This document shows positions 2,617 through 44,156 of a DNA stretch of 64,000 nt, piece by piece. Positions within the stretch are counted from its first letter, which is position 1; every line of letters begins with the position of its first letter. The notes under the pieces were generated by a model. It was not told the DNA's origin. It was given only the letters and a program-made list of their open reading frames with translations, and made no database searches. Made by a program: the position numbers and the translations under genes. Origin of the DNA: an uncultured Acidobacteriaceae bacterium (GTDB taxonomy: Bacteria; Acidobacteriota; Terriglobia; Terriglobales; Acidobacteriaceae); NCBI GenBank assembly GCA_963790505.1, contig CAWBOT010000004.1, positions 1,132,225 through 1,196,224 of the forward strand. Direction: 5' to 3'.

Positions 2617-3792
2617 ATGCCTATCTTTAAGGGAACTTCCCTCGTCAGGCTGCTATCTACCTCCGCGGTGTTTTCATTCTTGGCCATCTCCTGCCGGGCA
2701 GCCCCGCTCTTCGCCCAGCCCGCCCAACCCGACCCTGCCTTCGCCCGCGCCCAGCATCTCCGCCACGGCATCAACGCCAGCATATGGTTCGCCCAGCACT
2801 CCGGCGGATACACCGTCGACTATCTCCGGACCTTCACCACTGCCGACGACATCGCGCTCATGGCAAAGCTCGGCTTTGACCACGTCCGCCTCAGCATCGA
2901 CGCCGACCCGGTCACCGAATGGCAACGCGGCCGCCCCGGCGGCGCGGCCTTCATGGCCGAACTCGACCGCGTCGTGAAGACCATCGTCGACGATCACATG
3001 ACCGTCATCGTCGACATCCATCCCGAGAGCAAATACAAGGCCCCGCTGAAACAGGGCACCCAGCCCGTGCAGCAGTTCACTTCGCTGTGGCGCGCTCTCG
3101 CCGCCCATTACGCCTCAACTGACCCCGAGCACGTCTACTTCGAGATCATGAACGAGCCCGAGCAGGACGATCCCTATCGTTGGCAAGGTATTGAGAGCGT
3201 CGTAGCAGCCGCGATCCGCGAGGCTGCGCCCCATCACACCATCATCGTCGCCGGCGCGCACTGGTCGGGCATCGAAGATCTGCTCGCCCTTGAGCCGATC
3301 GCCCTCGACAACATCATCTACACCTTCCACGACTACGAGCCCTTCCCCTTCACTCACCAGGGTGCGACCTGGACCACCCCCGACGTCCAGCCGCTCCGCG
3401 CCATCCCCTACCCCTCCAGCCCCGAGGCAGTTGCGCCCAGGCTCGACGAAGAATCCTCGCTCAGCAGCCAGTTCTTCCTCAACCAATACGGCCTCGCCCG
3501 CTGGGACGCCTTCCGCGTCGAGAACACTATCGAGTTCGCCGCCAAATGGGGCAAGCTCCACAACGTCCCCGTCTACTGCGGCGAGTTCGGCGTCCTTCGC
3601 TACTACGCCCCACCCGGGATGCGCGCACAGTGGCTCCACGACATGCGCGTCGCCCTCGAAAAGAACAACATCGGATGGGCCATGTGGGACTACCAGACCA
3701 ACTTCGGCGTCGTCACCAAGAAAGACGGAGGCCCCGCCATCCCGGACATGGACGTAGTAAAAGCCCTCGGCCTCGCCACCGCAACCAGATGA
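2617..3792 (+). CDS. secreted glycoside hydrolase family 5 (cellulase-like)
   Basis: N-terminal signal-like segment. Contains the YFEIMNEPE acid/base motif and the CGEFGV nucleophile motif typical of GH5. Confidence 0.8.
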   Translation: MPIFKGTSLVRLLSTSAVFSFLAISCRAAPLFAQPAQPDPAFARAQHLRHGINASIWFAQHSGGYTVDYLRTFTTADDIALMAKLGFDHVRLSIDADPVTEWQRGRPGGAAFMAELDRVVKTIVDDHMTVIVDIHPESKYKAPLKQGTQPVQQFTSLWRALAAHYASTDPEHVYFEIMNEPEQDDPYRWQGIESVVAAAIREAAPHHTIIVAGAHWSGIEDLLALEPIALDNIIYTFHDYEPFPFTHQGATWTTPDVQPLRAIPYPSSPEAVAPRLDEESSLSSQFFLNQYGLARWDAFRVENTIEFAAKWGKLHNVPVYCGEFGVLRYYAPPGMRAQWLHDMRVALEKNNIGWAMWDYQTNFGVVTKKDGGPAIPDMDVVKALGLATATR

Positions 3793-9448: not shown

Positions 9449-10441
9449 CTAAAACCTCTCCCCGACCATCTCTTCGCTCTTCTTCCACAGCGCTTCGGCG
9501 TTCTTCGGGTCGAGCGCATACCCGCGGACACCCTCGCTGATCGCGCTAATGATCACATCGTCGGCCACGATCTTCCCAACGTGACAGTTCTCGCAGTATT
9601 TGCCGCCGATCTCCTCGGCCGGAGCAACCACCCCCGCCCACACCGACGTCGCCGCGCCCTGCGGAATCGTCTTCCACTCGAACGGCGCCTTGCCCTCGGC
9701 GGCCAGCTGTTGGTTCATCTGCTCGATCATCTTCGGGAACATCGCCGGATCGAGGTGCCTGCCCAACTCGGTCATAATGCCACCGGGATGGACCGCCGCC
9801 GCCCGCACTCCGCGCGCCTTATGCCGTGCATCGAAGGCCACCGCAAACAGAATGTTAGCCGTCTTCGATTGCCCGTAGCTCACAAACGGCTCGTACGGCC
9901 TCTTCTCAAAGTTCGGGTCATCAAGGACGACATTCGAGAATCGATGTCCCGAAGACGCCAGGTTGATCAGCCGGCCGCCCTCCCGCAGCAGCGGCGCGAT
10001 CTTGTTCACCAGCACGAAGTGGCCCAGGTGGTTCGTCCCAAACTGCGTCTCGAAACCATCCACCGTGTGCCCAAAAGGCGTCGCCATCACGCCCGCGTTA
10101 GCAATAATCACGTCGAACGCATCGCCTCTCGCCAGCAGCGCCTCGGCGCACGCTCGCACACTCTTCAGGCTGCCCAGGTCGAGGGCAACCAGCTCGAAGC
10201 TGCCCCCGTTCGCCGCCGCGGCTTTGCGCACCTCCGCTGTCGCCTTCTCTGCCTTTGCAAGATCTCTCGCCGCTCCCACAACATGTGCACCGTGCGCCAC
10301 CAGCGCCCGCGCCGTCTCGACCCCGATCCCCGCCGAAACTCCGGTCACGAGAATCCGTTTGCCATGCAAGTCCACGCCGTCCAGCACTTCTTCTGTCGTC
10401 GAAGTCGCGCCAAATTGCTGTGCCACCAATTGCTGTGCCAT
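9449..10441 (-). CDS. short-chain dehydrogenase/reductase (SDR) family oxidoreductase
   Basis: TGVSAGIGVETARAL (TGxxxGxG) and YGQSKTAN (YxxxK). Start chosen at MAQQLV because AGGAGA lies 5 nt upstream. The longer listed ORF runs through the divergent promoter region. Confidence 0.85.
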   Translation of the reverse strand: MAQQLVAQQFGATSTTEEVLDGVDLHGKRILVTGVSAGIGVETARALVAHGAHVVGAARDLAKAEKATAEVRKAAAANGGSFELVALDLGSLKSVRACAEALLARGDAFDVIIANAGVMATPFGHTVDGFETQFGTNHLGHFVLVNKIAPLLREGGRLINLASSGHRFSNVVLDDPNFEKRPYEPFVSYGQSKTANILFAVAFDARHKARGVRAAAVHPGGIMTELGRHLDPAMFPKMIEQMNQQLAAEGKAPFEWKTIPQGAATSVWAGVVAPAEEIGGKYCENCHVGKIVADDVIISAISEGVRGYALDPKNAEALWKKSEEMVGERF

Positions 10442-10571
10442 CTTTATCTCCTGGTGTACGTCTGTTGCCGTAGCCATATCGCTGATTTCCCCGTCCTGCG
10501 GACCGCGGGAAGAATTGAAGAACGAAGAGGGTCTCCTGAGAAAAGAGACGTCCTCTCCGTTATCATGAGAT

Positions 10572-10592
10572 AACCGGAGACACTCTCCGGTT
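10572..10592. promoter_or_regulatory. perfect 21-bp palindrome, candidate TetR operator
   Basis: AACCGGAGA-cac-TCTCCGGTT lies in the divergent SDR/TetR intergenic region. Confidence 0.5.
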
Positions 10593-10625
10593 GCAATATT
10601 TATTCCGGATTCGAAAATCCCCGCC

Positions 10626-11204
10626 ATGAAGGCTGCCGCTTCAAAACCCGCCGCCAGAAAGCCCCGCTCCGACGGCCAGCGCAACCGCGAGCTGCTCCTC
10701 GAGGCAGCCAGGCAGGCCTTTACCGAATCCGGCGCCAATGTCAGCCTCGACGAAGTCGCCCGTCGCGCCGGCGTCGGTCCCGGCACCCTCTACCGCCATT
10801 TCCCCACCCGCGACGCCCTGCTTGAGTCGGTTTATCGCACCGAGGTCGGGAAGCTCGCCGCCGCCCAGCGCACCTTCTCTGAGACCATGCCCCCAGTCGA
10901 TGCGCTTCGCGCCTGGATGCGCCTCTTCGTGGACTACATCGCTGCCAAGCAGATCATTGCTCCGGCGCTCAACACCATGGTCGGCGGTCCCTCCCGTGTC
11001 TTTGAGTCCACCGGAGAACTCATCAAAGCCGCCGTCGGCGCTCTCGTCAATCGCGCCATCGAAAACGGCGACGTCCGCCCCGACATCGATCCCCTCGACC
11101 TGCTGCGTGCCCTCGTCGGAGTCTCCTACGTCGCCTCGATGCCCGACTGGCCGGCCAGCGCCAAACGCCTCGTCGACATCCTCATCGCCGGCTCCCGGCC
11201 TTAA
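10626..11204 (+). CDS. TetR/AcrR-family transcriptional regulator
   Basis: N-terminal HTH region RELLLEAARQAFTESGANVSLDEVARRAGVGPGTLYRHFPTRDALL. Confidence 0.9.
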   Translation: MKAAASKPAARKPRSDGQRNRELLLEAARQAFTESGANVSLDEVARRAGVGPGTLYRHFPTRDALLESVYRTEVGKLAAAQRTFSETMPPVDALRAWMRLFVDYIAAKQIIAPALNTMVGGPSRVFESTGELIKAAVGALVNRAIENGDVRPDIDPLDLLRALVGVSYVASMPDWPASAKRLVDILIAGSRP

Positions 11205-11272
11205 CTCCTCTGTGTTCTCAGTGTCCTCTGTGATGAAATCTTGGCTGCGCGGTTCGAGCCACGACAAACCAC

Positions 11273-11335
11273 GGTGCCCCATTAGGGACAATTGTCATCC
11301 CGAGCGGAGCGCGTAGCGCGAAGTCGAAGGATCTG
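11273..11335 (+). repeat. composite of a GGTGCCCCAT head plus a TGTCAT...ATCTG repeat
   Basis: ggtgccccattaggg (11273-) is followed by tgtcatcccgagcggagcgcgtagcgcgaagtcgaaggatctg (11293-11335). Confidence 0.6.
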
Positions 11336-11420
11336 TAGTTAGCGACGGCACAATCACGAAAGTCAACGGCCGCCTCCAGTCGCGATCTCTGGCTGTCGGG
11401 TTACACTGTATCCACTCACC

Positions 11421-11633
11421 TCAACCCCGCTGCACCTTCAGCCGCGCGTATCGGTACGAGAGTCTGCCCCGGAAGATCTCCTGCGGAAGATACCGTCGCG
11501 TCTCGAGGCAGAACGGGCACGTTTCGACAACCCAATCGTCCGGCATCGTCTGAATGCGCGCTGCAATGTTCTCTTCGCAACCCTTGCACGCGACCACGAA
11601 GTCGTGAAACACCGCACTCGGCCCCTGAAACAT
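11421..11633 (-). CDS. small CxxC...CxxC zinc-ribbon-like hypothetical protein
   Basis: MFQGPSAVFHDFVVACKGCEEN...ETCPFCLETRRY. The start is uncertain: the ORF is open to 11708, and the extra N-terminus overlaps a repeat-like stretch. Confidence 0.35.
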   Translation of the reverse strand: MFQGPSAVFHDFVVACKGCEENIAARIQTMPDDWVVETCPFCLETRRYLPQEIFRGRLSYRYARLKVQRG

Positions 11634-40297: not shown

Positions 40298-41906
<1,609 letters not shown>

Positions 41907-41965
41907 TCACCGAAAGGTTCTACACTGAAAGTGCCAGGTGTGAGGTTTTGGCTCGGAGGCCGACT

Positions 41966-42310
41966 ATGGAAGGTTTGTGGACGATTGAGTTTGGAAGCAG
42001 CGAAGGGGTCTATGGTGGAGGCGTCGTCGTCTTTACCGGCGGCAAAATCATGGGCGGAGATGCTGCCTACTACTACACGGGCTCGTATGCCATGGCCGAT
42101 CACGATTCTTTTGAAGCCAAACTCCGCATTAAGCCTTTCATCGATGGTGTTCCCAGCGTTTTTAACACGCTTCGTAAGGATTTCACCCTAAATCTGAAGG
42201 GAACAGTCAAAGACGCAGACCACGCCATCGCTCAAGGGGTGCCATCTGAGATGCCGGGGATGGATTTGGGAATCGTCCTGACGAGGCGCGAAGTGGCTGC
42301 GGCTGCTTAG
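41966..42310 (+). CDS. GrlR-like small beta-barrel protein
   Basis: MEGLWTIEFGSSEGVYGGGVVVFTGGKIMGGDAAYYYTGSY... matches the GrlR-family pattern as I remember it. GGAGG lies 6 nt upstream of the ATG at 41966. Confidence 0.6.
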   Translation: MEGLWTIEFGSSEGVYGGGVVVFTGGKIMGGDAAYYYTGSYAMADHDSFEAKLRIKPFIDGVPSVFNTLRKDFTLNLKGTVKDADHAIAQGVPSEMPGMDLGIVLTRREVAAAA

Positions 42311-42322
42311 GCGCATCGGGTC

Positions 42323-43048
42323 ATGCCAGAGATAGCCGATCGATCAAATGCGAATAGCCTCGATGCCGTCCTAGCCGATTTCGATGCAAGGGGGGAGCAC
42401 TTTAACAGCCTTTGCCGAGAGACACGCGGTCTGCTCGAAAGACTTCTGGCCTCTAAAGGCCTTTCAGTCCAGTCCATTCAACATAGGGTAAAGGGGCGGG
42501 ATAAAGTAGCGACGAAATACAAGGACCCAGCCAAGAGCTATGTGAAACTGACCGACATTACAGATCTGGTCGGTTTTCGCTTAATTACCTATTATGAGGA
42601 CGAGGTTGACGGGATCGCGGAATTTATTCGGGAGCAGTTTGTCGCTGATTCAAGATCAAACGACGCTCGGGCAAGGAGCGTCGACAGCTTTGGCTATCAT
42701 GCGTTGAATTTAGTTTGCTCTTACACCCAGAGCCGCTTAGCGCTTCCCGAACACAGGGCCTTTACGGGAGACTGCTTTGAAATTCAGGTCACCTCCATCC
42801 TGCGTCACGCCTGGTCGGAGATGGAACATAGCTGGTACGACCTGAGGGGCGATTCCCCAGAGAAAGTGAAGCGCCGGTATGCACGCTTGGCCGCGCTGCT
42901 GGAGATTGCCGAAGATGAATTCCAAGATCTGCGAAAGCTGCAACGAGACTTCAAGGAATCGACGGAACTCCGATTGAAGGCTGGAGTATCGGCTATTAAC
43001 GCAGGTTCTTCCGGGACACTCATTGACCAGGATTCGCCGTCCTCTTAG
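42323..43048 (+). CDS. stand-alone RelA/SpoT-domain (small alarmone synthetase-like) protein
   Basis: HRVKGRDKVATK, ITDLVGFRLITYYEDEV, FGYHALNLV, and FEIQVTSILRHAWSEMEH correspond to synthetase motifs RVK / DxxGxR / GYxSxH / EIQIRTxxxHxWA. It starts 12 nt after the GrlR-like gene. Confidence 0.75.
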   Translation: MPEIADRSNANSLDAVLADFDARGEHFNSLCRETRGLLERLLASKGLSVQSIQHRVKGRDKVATKYKDPAKSYVKLTDITDLVGFRLITYYEDEVDGIAEFIREQFVADSRSNDARARSVDSFGYHALNLVCSYTQSRLALPEHRAFTGDCFEIQVTSILRHAWSEMEHSWYDLRGDSPEKVKRRYARLAALLEIAEDEFQDLRKLQRDFKESTELRLKAGVSAINAGSSGTLIDQDSPSS

Positions 43049-43049
43049 G

Positions 43050-44156
43050 CTAAAAGTGGCGATTTAGGAAATGCTCCCAGCCACTGGCGCGGAGCTCGAT
43101 GGAAGGCTGGTTCCGCCGTGTGAGAGTGACGGTTGGCGCGCTCTTCTGCCGCTTGCTCATTCTTCCGATGACGCGAATCGCGATGCCGCCGATGTTCGCT
43201 GGGATTTTGGTTTTGGCTGGCGCTGTGAAGAGGAGCTCATAGTCTTCGCCCCCGTGGAGGGCGAGGTCGAGGGCAGATGGGGTCCAGCCAGCGGCTTGGG
43301 CGAGGCGGGCCATGGGGTGGACGGGAATCGCAGCGGCGTCGATCTCGGCGGCGAGGTTGGATTCTTCGCAGAGGTGGCGCAAGTCGGAGGACAAACCGTC
43401 GCTGAGATCAATGCAGGCGGTGGCGAGGCGCTGACTCACGAGCTGGCGTCCGATGTCGATGCGGGCTTCGGGGTAGAAATGTGGGTGTCCTGAAGCAGCG
43501 GCCTTCAGCTTCGCGAATTTCTTTGGCTTGCGCTCCAGGGCGAGCAACTCCGCTGCAGAACCGCCAAGACCGGGCCCGGTGACGTAAATGAGGTCGCCGG
43601 CCTGGGCACCGGCGCGCAACAGAGCCCGTTTGCGTTTCACTCCGCCGATGAGAACGATGTCAGCGGCGACCAACCCGCCCACTCCAGTCACAGACGGGGA
43701 CTCAGCCGTGTCTCCGCCGGCGAGCGAGACCTGCATTTGGTCGGCCAGGGCGAGCAGGCCGTTGAGGAAACGGTCTGTCCAGCTTGGCTGGCCGCGCCGA
43801 CCGACGGTCAATTCGCGTGGTACCGCAAGCGACAGGAAGGTGGCGATCGGGCGCGCCCCCATGGCGGCGAGATCGCTCAGTCCGCGCGCAAGACAGCGGT
43901 GGCCGACTGACTCGGGCGGGTGCCAATCGCGTCTAAAGTGCACATTCTCAAGGGAGAAGTCGGTGGTGACGGCAATCTCCTCGCCTGCGGCGGGGCGAAG
44001 CAGGGCGCAGTCATCGCCGATTCCAAGACGCAAGTCTCGAGAAATGCTCTTGTTCCTGGCGCGTAGGGCGGAGATGAGCGCAAGTTCTCCGCCAGGCTGG
44101 GCGCCGCCGCGGTCATCTTGTTTCAACGCTCTAGAGATAAGGCTCGCCATTATCAC
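43050..44156 (-). CDS. thiL: thiamine-monophosphate kinase
   Basis: LRLGIGDDCALL, AIR-synthase-like repeats, and GGDTA. Confidence 0.85.
   Translation of the reverse strand: MIMASLISRALKQDDRGGAQPGGELALISALRARNKSISRDLRLGIGDDCALLRPAAGEEIAVTTDFSLENVHFRRDWHPPESVGHRCLARGLSDLAAMGARPIATFLSLAVPRELTVGRRGQPSWTDRFLNGLLALADQMQVSLAGGDTAESPSVTGVGGLVAADIVLIGGVKRKRALLRAGAQAGDLIYVTGPGLGGSAAELLALERKPKKFAKLKAAASGHPHFYPEARIDIGRQLVSQRLATACIDLSDGLSSDLRHLCEESNLAAEIDAAAIPVHPMARLAQAAGWTPSALDLALHGGEDYELLFTAPAKTKIPANIGGIAIRVIGRMSKRQKSAPTVTLTRRNQPSIELRASGWEHFLNRHF

Follow-up and report, generated by a model that had tools for sequence, protein, structure and literature searches.

GrlR, the LEE negative regulator of EPEC and EHEC (Pfam PF16518; PDB IDs 2OVS and 4KT5), works by binding and sequestering the HTH regulator GrlA (PDB ID 4KT5) and is the only characterized member of its family. 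The validated toxSAS modules are FaRel, FaRel2, PhRel, PhRel2 and CapRel (Jimmy et al. 2020, PMC7229694), with Tas1 as a further validated subfamily, and the known classes of toxSAS antitoxins are pZFD, Tis1-like, PanA/PAD1 and SAH (PMC11782079). In the fused CapRelSJ46 (PMC9712102, PDB ID 7ZTB), the C-terminal domain is a pseudo-zinc-finger. RelQ and RelP (SAS1/SAS2) are housekeeping, non-toxic enzymes, and the roles of the ATP-donor, Mg and G-loop tyrosine residues are known from their structures (PMC5794853). The cassette described here combines a GrlR-fold small protein with a RelA/SpoT-type synthetase (SYNTH) enzyme. It is located in a window of 64,000 nucleotides, the whole stretch of DNA analyzed, from an uncultured Acidobacteriaceae bacterium, and its features are the following:

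40298-41822, minus strand: gltX flank (Pfam tRNA-synt_1c), divergent from the cassette
41955-41959, plus strand: GGAGG Shine-Dalgarno-like element, read from the sequence, 6 nt 5' of the small-gene start
41966-42310, plus strand: upstream partner gene, encoding the small β-barrel of GrlR fold (114 aa), with an ATG start
42311-42322, plus strand: intergenic gap of 12 nt, an operon-type junction
42323-43048, plus strand: RelA/SpoT-type SYNTH gene (241 aa; Pfam RelA_SpoT), encoding the core and a long helix, without the C-terminal helical domain
43046-43052, no strand assigned: truncation junction, with the synthetase TAG at 43046-43048 and the thiL stop at 43050-43052 (minus strand)
43050-44156, minus strand: ThiL-type AIRS/AIRS_C flank (Pfam AIRS 9.7e-24, AIRS_C 1.2e-7), convergent with the synthetase gene

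These coordinates confirm the layout of the original prediction, namely two co-oriented genes separated by 12 nt between gltX and thiL on the opposite strand, and a single nucleotide lies between the synthetase stop and the convergent thiL stop. The codons richer in A/T than those of the neighbors are also confirmed: GC3 is 0.59 and 0.57 in the two cassette genes versus 0.79 in gltX and 0.73 in thiL, hence ~0.2 below the flanking genes, and the GC content of the cassette is 0.52-0.54 versus 0.59 for the window. In this assembly gltX is frameshifted, being interrupted by a single inserted nucleotide near 41639. No promoter-like match was found in the region upstream of the cassette, nor a terminator at the synthetase/thiL stop junction, and an Rfam scan of the window returned tRNAs only. 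Among cassettes located in unrelated genomic contexts, the sole common upstream feature is a GGAGG-like element at equal distance; besides it, no conserved promoter, operator or RNA element was found 5' of the cassette. The gltX-cassette synteny is common to two metagenome contigs, L088 and L090 (76% DNA identity). Purifying selection acts on both window genes: comparison with L088 yields dN/dS values of 0.06 for the small gene and 0.12 for the synthetase gene.

The small-barrel gene and the synthetase gene form one co-inherited operon. The synthetase gene lies directly 3' of the small gene in 78 of the 80 metagenome loci listed that were found via the small protein; the two others end at a contig edge, so that the pair is adjacent in 78/78 assessable loci, and the loci examined before this set display the identical arrangement throughout. 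Such a gene-neighborhood survey had been proposed in the original prediction, and it establishes the pair as conserved. The intergenic gap is mostly 11-16 nt long (-8 to 25 in nearly all loci), the pairwise distances of partner and SYNTH are correlated (r = 0.80), and the GrlR-linked synthetases group as one clade in an NJ tree, of which a single member (L012) is without partner. Among the matches listed, the pair is present in hundreds of relatives. Conversely, no GrlR-like gene was found within ~4 kb of stand-alone relatives from other phyla (0/72). No third gene is conserved beside the pair, as clustering of the ORFs around the pair in 32 long loci revealed only lineage-local synteny (cca, frr/lipA, thiE). 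At three loci the synthetase is disrupted while the partner is intact: by an IS insertion (L109), by splitting of the gene (L139) or by truncation (L165). Acidobacteria of soil and peat, a poorly studied group, commonly carry the pair, and Alloacidobacterium dinghuense is a cultured carrier (synthetase QNI32784.1, partner QNI32785.1). A literature search found no paper on a GrlR-like/RelA_SpoT pairing, in agreement with the original prediction, whose author knew of none, and the pair looks like an undescribed module of toxin-antitoxin or regulatory type.

The window small protein has no Pfam match, and the NCBIfam GrlR model (NF010652) hits it weakly (E 8.8e-5, 22.6 bits versus a 205-bit cut-off). 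At the family level, weak matches to Pfam GrlR (PF16518) were obtained for 49 of 109 members (best E 6e-5), and the family profile reaches E 0.0035 against the PDB GrlR sequences. The AlphaFold model, derived from the 109-sequence family alignment in which the MEGLWT start is conserved, exhibits eight strands with a pLDDT of 92.6. Its best three PDB matches in Foldseek are GrlR chains (4KT5_A/B and 2OVS_A; TM 0.79-0.81 over 110-114 columns), and the fold search returned only GrlR and β-barrels. The proposed GrlR-like small β-barrel is confirmed by its modeled structure, while its sequence scores lie below the curated profile cut-off. It shares with GrlR an eight-stranded barrel over the full length (TM 0.80) and a G-x-Y/W...GGD...Y-x-G pattern, but sequence identity amounts to ~20-24%, with sub-threshold scores, and the surface EDED loop of GrlR falls opposite a loop that varies within the family. 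The contexts differ as well: neither T3SS genes nor a conserved HTH neighbor, GrlA-like or otherwise, were found in the flanks examined, and the gene that is conserved beside the barrel encodes an enzyme instead of a transcription factor. The family had been described as known only from enteric T3SS loci; GrlR-like proteins occur more widely, as a profile search yields at least 1511 clusters of them at 50% identity.

The 241-aa protein of the window matches Pfam RelA_SpoT (PF04607) over residues 54-172 with an E of 3e-11 (44 bits versus a 27-bit cut-off), which verifies the RelA/SpoT synthetase identity; the motifs quoted for it are present. In sequence as in fold, its catalytic core most resembles RelQ and RelP. 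These two are the only PDB sequences returned by the family profile at E<=1 (E 5e-14 versus 2BE3) and rank first in the fold search (TM 0.79 to 5DEC), in which CapRel (7ZTB) appears at rank 40; solved toxSAS structures other than CapRel are absent from the results of both searches. The nearest enzymes of the SYNTH domain are the housekeeping RelQ/RelP, ahead of the validated toxSAS whose structures are solved. The synthetases score 31-48 bits with NCBIfam YjbM (cut-off 320), and no matching acidobacterial subfamily is listed in the texts of Jimmy et al. 2020 and Atkinson et al. 2011.

The donor side of the active site is conserved. Across 80 sequences, that of the window included, residues R55, K57, K65, D81, R86 and E153 (donor/Mg) and Tyr125 of the G-loop do not vary, and they line up with their counterparts in RelQ and RelP. 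In contrast, the S of RxKxxxS, the S and H of GYxSxH, the R of EIQIR and the K of YK found in RelQ/RelP are replaced here by K, A, N, T and D, respectively. These replacements define a five-position signature of the GrlR-linked clade (S61K, S127A, H129N, R157T and K173D), >85-95% specific to it, whereas the stand-alone relatives retain S/H/R/K at these sites in 94-100% of sequences. Accordingly, the window displays GYHALN, EIQVTS and WYD instead of the canonical acceptor-side motifs GYxSxH, EIQIR(T/S) and YK. The T-for-R and N-for-H exchanges noticed at the outset are real, but they belong to this clade signature and are not idiosyncratic. Since the ATP-donor and Mg residues are kept and five pocket residues are changed, the sequence suggests that the enzyme still transfers pyrophosphate from ATP, but probably to an acceptor other than GDP/GTP. 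To note, SYNTH carries a small negative net charge (~-3 on average), unlike what is expected of a tRNA-binding toxin, which counts against a toxin reading.

The parent family of these synthetases, phrog_9640, is a widespread stand-alone enzyme; a filamentous Vibrio phage and a prophage of M. abscessus each carry it as an accessory gene on its own. Membership of the PADLOC candidate PDC-S33 was considered and dropped, the match being distant (31-72 bits over a profile of 349 positions). A scan of viral contigs did not reveal the pair: a single remote GrlR-like gene turned up, unaccompanied by a synthetase, and the small protein has no tblastn match in GenBank phages. On chromosomes, the pair occupies seven or more different sites, with gltX/thiL, rplM-rpsI, thiE, frr or cca as neighbors depending on the locus, and it also resides inside an island comprising tRNA-Val, an integrase, a DnaB-like gene and HTH_17. 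With the low GC3 and the phage-borne parent family, these sites indicate mobility, in a setting that resembles that of toxin-antitoxin or defense genes.

The window protein had been taken for a natively minimal stand-alone synthetase; it belongs to a ~370-aa family and has lost the C-terminal part, and loss of the C-terminal domain is recurrent in the GrlR-linked clade. Homologs are ~365-385 aa long, nearly all of them exceeding the window protein by ~130-140 aa. A tblastn search for the missing domain across the window, and 3' of further truncated copies, yielded nothing significant. In the model of a full-length protein 67% identical to the window copy (P0002), the C-terminal domain spans residues 229-374 and is all-helical. 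Its sequence diverges much more rapidly than that of SYNTH (27% versus 56% identity). This family resembles the fused CapRelSJ46 in its size, its N-terminal SYNTH, its fast-evolving C-terminal domain and its presence on prophages. It differs by its helical C-terminal domain and by a poor full-length superposition on 7ZTB (rmsd ~22 Å), and the window copy has a trans-encoded partner in place of that domain. RelQ and RelP, for their part, possess neither such an extra domain nor an obligate partner gene. Enzymes without the C-terminal domain amount to 6-8 of ~63 distinct GrlR-linked loci versus 1 of 71 stand-alone loci, a modest enrichment (Fisher p ~0.01-0.05) over loci whose sampling is non-independent. 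These enzymes keep all invariant residues at ~58-60% mutual identity.

Like validated toxSAS modules, the cassette couples a stand-alone SYNTH enzyme to a small protein unrelated to it in a tight bicistron that is conserved; it is likewise mobile and patchily distributed, and has relatives on phages and prophages. It departs from them by its proximity to RelQ/RelP, by a toxicity that is only putative, and by a partner of GrlR β-barrel type, outside the known antitoxin classes, which counts against an antitoxin reading. The reading that we prefer, with a probability of about 0.45, is that the barrel binds and restrains, antitoxin-like, a pyrophosphokinase whose acceptor substrate has changed. 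The enzyme would descend from the widespread mobile stand-alone family, with its RelQ/RelP-like SYNTH core and its hypervariable helical C-terminal domain. An acidobacterial clade would then have gained the GrlR-like gene, the donor and Mg residues staying in place while five pocket residues changed. By analogy with GrlR sequestering GrlA, the barrel may bind the enzyme directly and hold it inactive. Such control in trans could free the enzyme from the need for its C-terminal domain and so account for the repeated deletion of that domain, in the window as elsewhere. The analysis itself demonstrates the two protein identities, their strict pairing, the mobility of the pair, the five-residue signature and the truncation, whereas for this scheme we infer binding, inhibition, toxicity and a changed substrate.

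Another possibility, to which we give somewhat less credence, is a non-toxic signaling unit, in which a bona fide synthetase of alarmones or related nucleotides would be activated or tuned, not neutralized, by the barrel acting as a regulatory or ligand-sensing subunit upon a small-molecule or protein cue. Several observations are in keeping with it: the SYNTH core is nearest to RelQ/RelP in sequence and fold; the GrlR barrel resembles that of lipocalins, whose fold often serves ligand binding; the cassette is retained in synteny across lineages with saturated dS under strong purifying selection; and it often lies among translation-related housekeeping genes (gltX, cca/tsaD/cysS, frr, rplM-rpsI-rpsB-tsf). 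However, the replacement of the canonical acceptor-site residues does not fit an alarmone synthetase well, and a patchy, multi-site distribution with presence as cargo on an integrase island, a phage-borne parent family and repeated disruption of the synthetase with the partner left intact argue against this possibility as well.

A third explanation concerns the window only and is improbable: the 241-aa gene would be a decaying remnant with its 3' third deleted up to thiL and a non-functional product, in a cassette on its way to being lost. Indeed, the window copy is devoid of ~140 aa of the syntenic, 67%-identical full-length homolog of contig L088, and its stop abuts that of thiL without a terminator. 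Clear inactivation has occurred at the three disrupted loci mentioned above, and gltX is frameshifted in the same assembly. This frameshift had raised the question of an assembly artefact, which is ruled out: an independent Logan assembly (L089) exhibits the identical junction at 100% identity, and the 430 nt missing are beyond any indel error. The recurrence of the junction in a second assembly also speaks against decay, as do the intact ORF, the presence of every family-invariant residue and the dN/dS of the synthetase gene, although this value is averaged over two lineages. Furthermore, an independent lineage devoid of the C-terminal domain (L096, L133, L142 and L174) has diverged to ~58-60% identity with all catalytic residues kept, indicating that this shorter form can be maintained by selection. 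Finally, that the two genes share an operon yet not a function, the barrel being an anti-activator of an unlinked transcription factor as GrlR, the sole characterized member, is of the HTH regulator GrlA, is very improbable, since no HTH gene is conserved beside the pair and strict adjacency at all assessable loci listed, in at least seven contexts, together with co-divergence is difficult to reconcile with separate functions.

The restraint of the enzyme by its barrel may be part of a broader picture, which we put forward as rather doubtful: GrlR-fold barrels could be an unrecognized class of trans neutralizers or sensors of RelA/SpoT-type toxins, the acceptor of the clade could have switched from GDP/GTP to, for example, another nucleotide or the 3' end of a tRNA, the control exerted by the hypervariable C-terminal domain could have passed to the partner, and the pair could be a new toxin-antitoxin or defense family. 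If the barrel neutralizes or gates the enzyme, it would be a fifth, structurally unrelated control of RelA/SpoT-type toxins, and the large, almost uncharacterized GrlR-like superfamily, with its at least 1511 clusters, would gain its first function outside enteric virulence regulation. The five-residue signature marks a clade with a likely new substrate and bears on SYNTH chemistry beyond (p)ppGpp. The family would, moreover, offer a natural series for the control of these enzymes, from the stand-alone enzyme with a C-terminal domain, through the enzyme with both partner and C-terminal domain, to the enzyme with the partner only.

The GrlR-like gene and the RelA/SpoT-type synthetase gene are co-oriented and 12 nt apart, between gltX and thiL on the opposite strand:

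40298-41822, minus strand: gltX, flank of the pair
41955-41959, plus strand: GGAGG preceding the small-gene start
41966-42310, plus strand: small gene (MEGLWT...); ATG 41966 is the best start, conserved in 109 homologs
42323-43048, plus strand: synthetase gene, 241 codons from ATG 42323
43050-44156, minus strand: ThiL-type gene, flank convergent with the synthetase

The stops of the synthetase and thiL are 1 nt apart. GC3 is lower in the small gene (0.59) and the synthetase (0.57) than in gltX (0.79) and thiL (0.73), bearing out the layout and atypical composition of the original prediction. Against L088, a peat-metagenome locus, dN/dS is 0.06 for the partner, 0.12 for the enzyme and 0.05 for gltX, rough values because dS is saturated (~1.7). 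The window gltX is broken into two overlapping minus-strand ORFs (41433-41822 and 40298-41623; break near 41639) by a single extra base (ATGCGAAGAC versus ATGGAGGAC in the syntenic loci L088 and L090); either the assembly contains an indel here or this normally essential gene is truly frameshifted.

The 114-aa small protein has no Pfam match and a weak NCBIfam GrlR match (E 8.8e-5), and PF16518 is matched weakly by 49 of 109 family members. GrlR provides the best PDB sequences for the family profile (E 0.0035). The AlphaFold model (109-sequence alignment) has eight strands and a pLDDT of 92.6, and its three best PDB matches are the GrlR chains 4KT5_A/B and 2OVS_A (TM 0.79-0.81, whole length). 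Because the model is confident and these are its best matches, the predicted GrlR fold can be taken as established; the GrlR-like identity noted initially thus holds for the fold, but not as curated family membership by sequence. An IMG/VR contig (L178, 7455-7790) encodes a 111-aa GrlR-like protein, 35% identical to that of the window, next to a DNA methylase-like gene and with no synthetase there, and the window protein has a weak match to phrog_2483; phages therefore also carry GrlR-fold proteins, in other contexts.

The 241-aa protein is above the Pfam RelA_SpoT threshold (E 3e-11), confirming the RelA/SpoT-type assignment, and distantly matches NCBIfam YjbM/RelQ. It also matches phrog_9640 (E 1.2e-45), which its stand-alone relatives (~350-390 aa) match over the full length (E 2.7e-102 for one from Bacillus). 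Phages carry this parent family too, as a solitary accessory gene of opposite orientation: it is present in a filamentous Vibrio phage (L176, PQ189320.1, 6571-7581) and in a Mycobacterium abscessus prophage (L177, MW584157.1 gene 42), where it is annotated ‘GTP pyrophosphokinase’. RelQ/RelP are closest to the catalytic (SYNTH) core of the family (TM 0.79), CapRel 7ZTB ranks 40 in the fold search (rmsd ~22 Å), and the PADLOC candidate PDC-S33 is distantly related. Small genes of other kinds lie just upstream of some stand-alone members: an HxlR-type HTH gene in Sulfurospirillum/Campylobacterales, a DUF6887 gene in Nostoc and a small HTH gene in Bacillus toyonensis (small-gene coordinates 3591-3974 in L043/L048/L063, 3700-3999 in L070 and 3524-3988 in L047), which may reflect lineage-specific partner swapping.

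The pairing of the GrlR-like gene with the synthetase is real and specific. On the contigs examined that encode small-protein homologs, a RelA_SpoT gene always follows 3-16 nt downstream. The neighbourhood survey bears out co-occurrence: when metagenomes were scanned with the small protein as the sole seed, the synthetase is directly downstream in 78 of 80 loci, and the remaining two are cut off by a contig end within ~40 nt. Conversely, scanning genomes from the synthetase (>587 loci, many phyla) limits the GrlR-like gene to an acidobacterial clade of at least 44% identity; it is absent within ~4 kb from all of the 72 loci that are more distant. A neighbour-joining tree places the GrlR-linked enzymes in a single clade, together with partner-less L012, and distances between partners correlate with those between SYNTH domains (r = 0.80). 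L012 (1-1813) belongs to a MAG binned as Limnocylindrales, and the ~620 nt of sequence that precede its synthetase contain no GrlR-like gene. Among clade members with the KANTR signature it alone shows this absence; partner loss, horizontal transfer or mis-binning are possible.

The pair is present at no fewer than seven different sites:

gltX-thiL: window, L088
beside rplM-rpsI-rpsB-tsf: L001
beside thiE: L002-5
after frr: L107, L110, L114, L172
before cca: L119, L142, L174
near cca-tsaD-cysS: L171, cultured Alloacidobacterium dinghuense (QNI32785.1, QNI32784.1)
within an island of tRNA-Val, integrase, DnaB-like helicase and HTH_17 genes: L006/7

QNI32785.1 is annotated as "GrlR family regulatory protein". 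Neither a conserved third gene around the pair nor a shared upstream element beyond the SD was found. The cca gene, encoding a CCA-adding enzyme (PolyA_pol + HD), starts 12-30 nt past the synthetase in one lineage (L119, L142, L174 and L175), and in L171 lies at 10208-11590, 0.7 kb from the pair on the opposite strand. Further sites also adjoin translation genes (gltX, frr, rplM-rpsI, cysS, tsaD), which may be chance or may point to a role connected with tRNA or translation. In L002, L004 and L005, a 79-aa PhdYeFM-type antitoxin gene (133-372, 622-861 and 120-359) precedes the GrlR-like gene by 147 nt in the same orientation, and no obvious toxin gene of its own intervenes.

Stand-alone relatives retain the canonical RxKxxxS, GYxSxH, EIQIR(S/T) and EHxLxYK motifs, whereas in the GrlR-linked clade these read RxKxxxK, GYxA(L)N, EIQIT(S) and EHxWYD. 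The changes (S61K, S127A, H129N, R157T and K173D, window numbering) are each above 85-95% clade-specific; N129 is the exception (N in 53 and H in 17 of 71). The T-for-R and N-for-H substitutions first noted are thus present, though as part of a clade signature and not as peculiarities of the window. Five ATP-donor and Mg binding residues of RelP (R78, K80, K88, D107/E174 and R112 in SaRelP numbering; PMC5794853) and the G-loop Tyr are invariant across the family of the window enzyme. This pattern suggests that the pyrophosphate-donor half-reaction would be conserved and the acceptor changed.

Nearly all of 94 homologs are 365-385 aa long, aligning along the entire window protein and extending ~140 residues further. 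The synthetase of L088, which is syntenic with the window (divergent gltX, small gene, synthetase; 76% DNA identity), is full-length (382 aa, 67% identical); its model (pLDDT 92.3) runs from the SYNTH core through a long helix (180-219) to a C-terminal domain made up entirely of helices (CTD, 229-374). The window protein ends just past the position of this helix, no CTD remnant was found across the whole window, and the synthetase-thiL junction is identical in an independent Logan assembly. The window copy, first described as having no hydrolase or regulatory domains, is a truncated form. By identity, the CTD (27% versus 56% for the core in the GrlR-linked clade, 17% versus 45% in the stand-alone clade) is much faster-evolving, as expected of a specificity or sensor domain.

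CTD-less enzymes of 228-249 aa also occur in L096, L133, L142 and L174/L175; L142 and L174 are syntenic with full-length L119, upstream of cca. The loss in the window is independent, since its nearest relative is full-length. These proteins are ~58-60% identical mutually and keep all invariant residues. Short forms are more frequent where the partner is present (6-8 of ~63 loci versus 1 of 71 without; Fisher p ~0.01-0.05, loci non-independent). At other loci the enzyme is inactivated outright. The synthetase is interrupted after codon ~70 in L109 (1386-5285) by a ~2.6-kb IS insertion encoding a 328-aa zinc-ribbon transposase-like protein (2795-3781, minus strand), and resumes at ~4200; in L139 (431-1549) its SYNTH part (244 aa) and its CTD (114 aa) are encoded by separate ORFs, for which a nonsense mutation, a frameshift or an error in sequencing could be responsible; in L165 it is truncated within the long helix. 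The partner is intact in all three, which is suggestive only, because these loci were found through it.

Taken together, the observations are consistent with a mobile module of two genes, one for a protein-binding barrel and the other for a pyrophosphokinase that this barrel controls and whose acceptor pocket is remodelled. We tentatively favour, at a probability of roughly 0.45, an antitoxin-like role in which the GrlR-fold barrel would restrain the enzyme. Four points speak for it: the genes are arranged as in TA systems, the module is mobile, the ancestry of the enzyme is phage-borne, and the CTD would be dispensable when the partner is there. A regulatory pairing without toxicity, though less probable, is a serious rival, as the core resembles RelQ/RelP and is slightly acidic, and inheritance is stable under strong constraint. 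That the window copy specifically, shortened as it is, represents a decaying remnant is unlikely; the CTD-less form can be selectively maintained, since invariant residues survive such mutual divergence.

According to Jimmy et al. (PMC7229694), conserved bicistrons house many SAS subfamilies, of which they pursued only five. Full-text literature searches found no published description of a GrlR-like/synthetase pairing. The known toxSAS antitoxin folds are pZFD, Tis1-like, PanA and SAH (PMC11782079); if the GrlR barrel is a toxSAS antitoxin, it would represent a new antitoxin fold.
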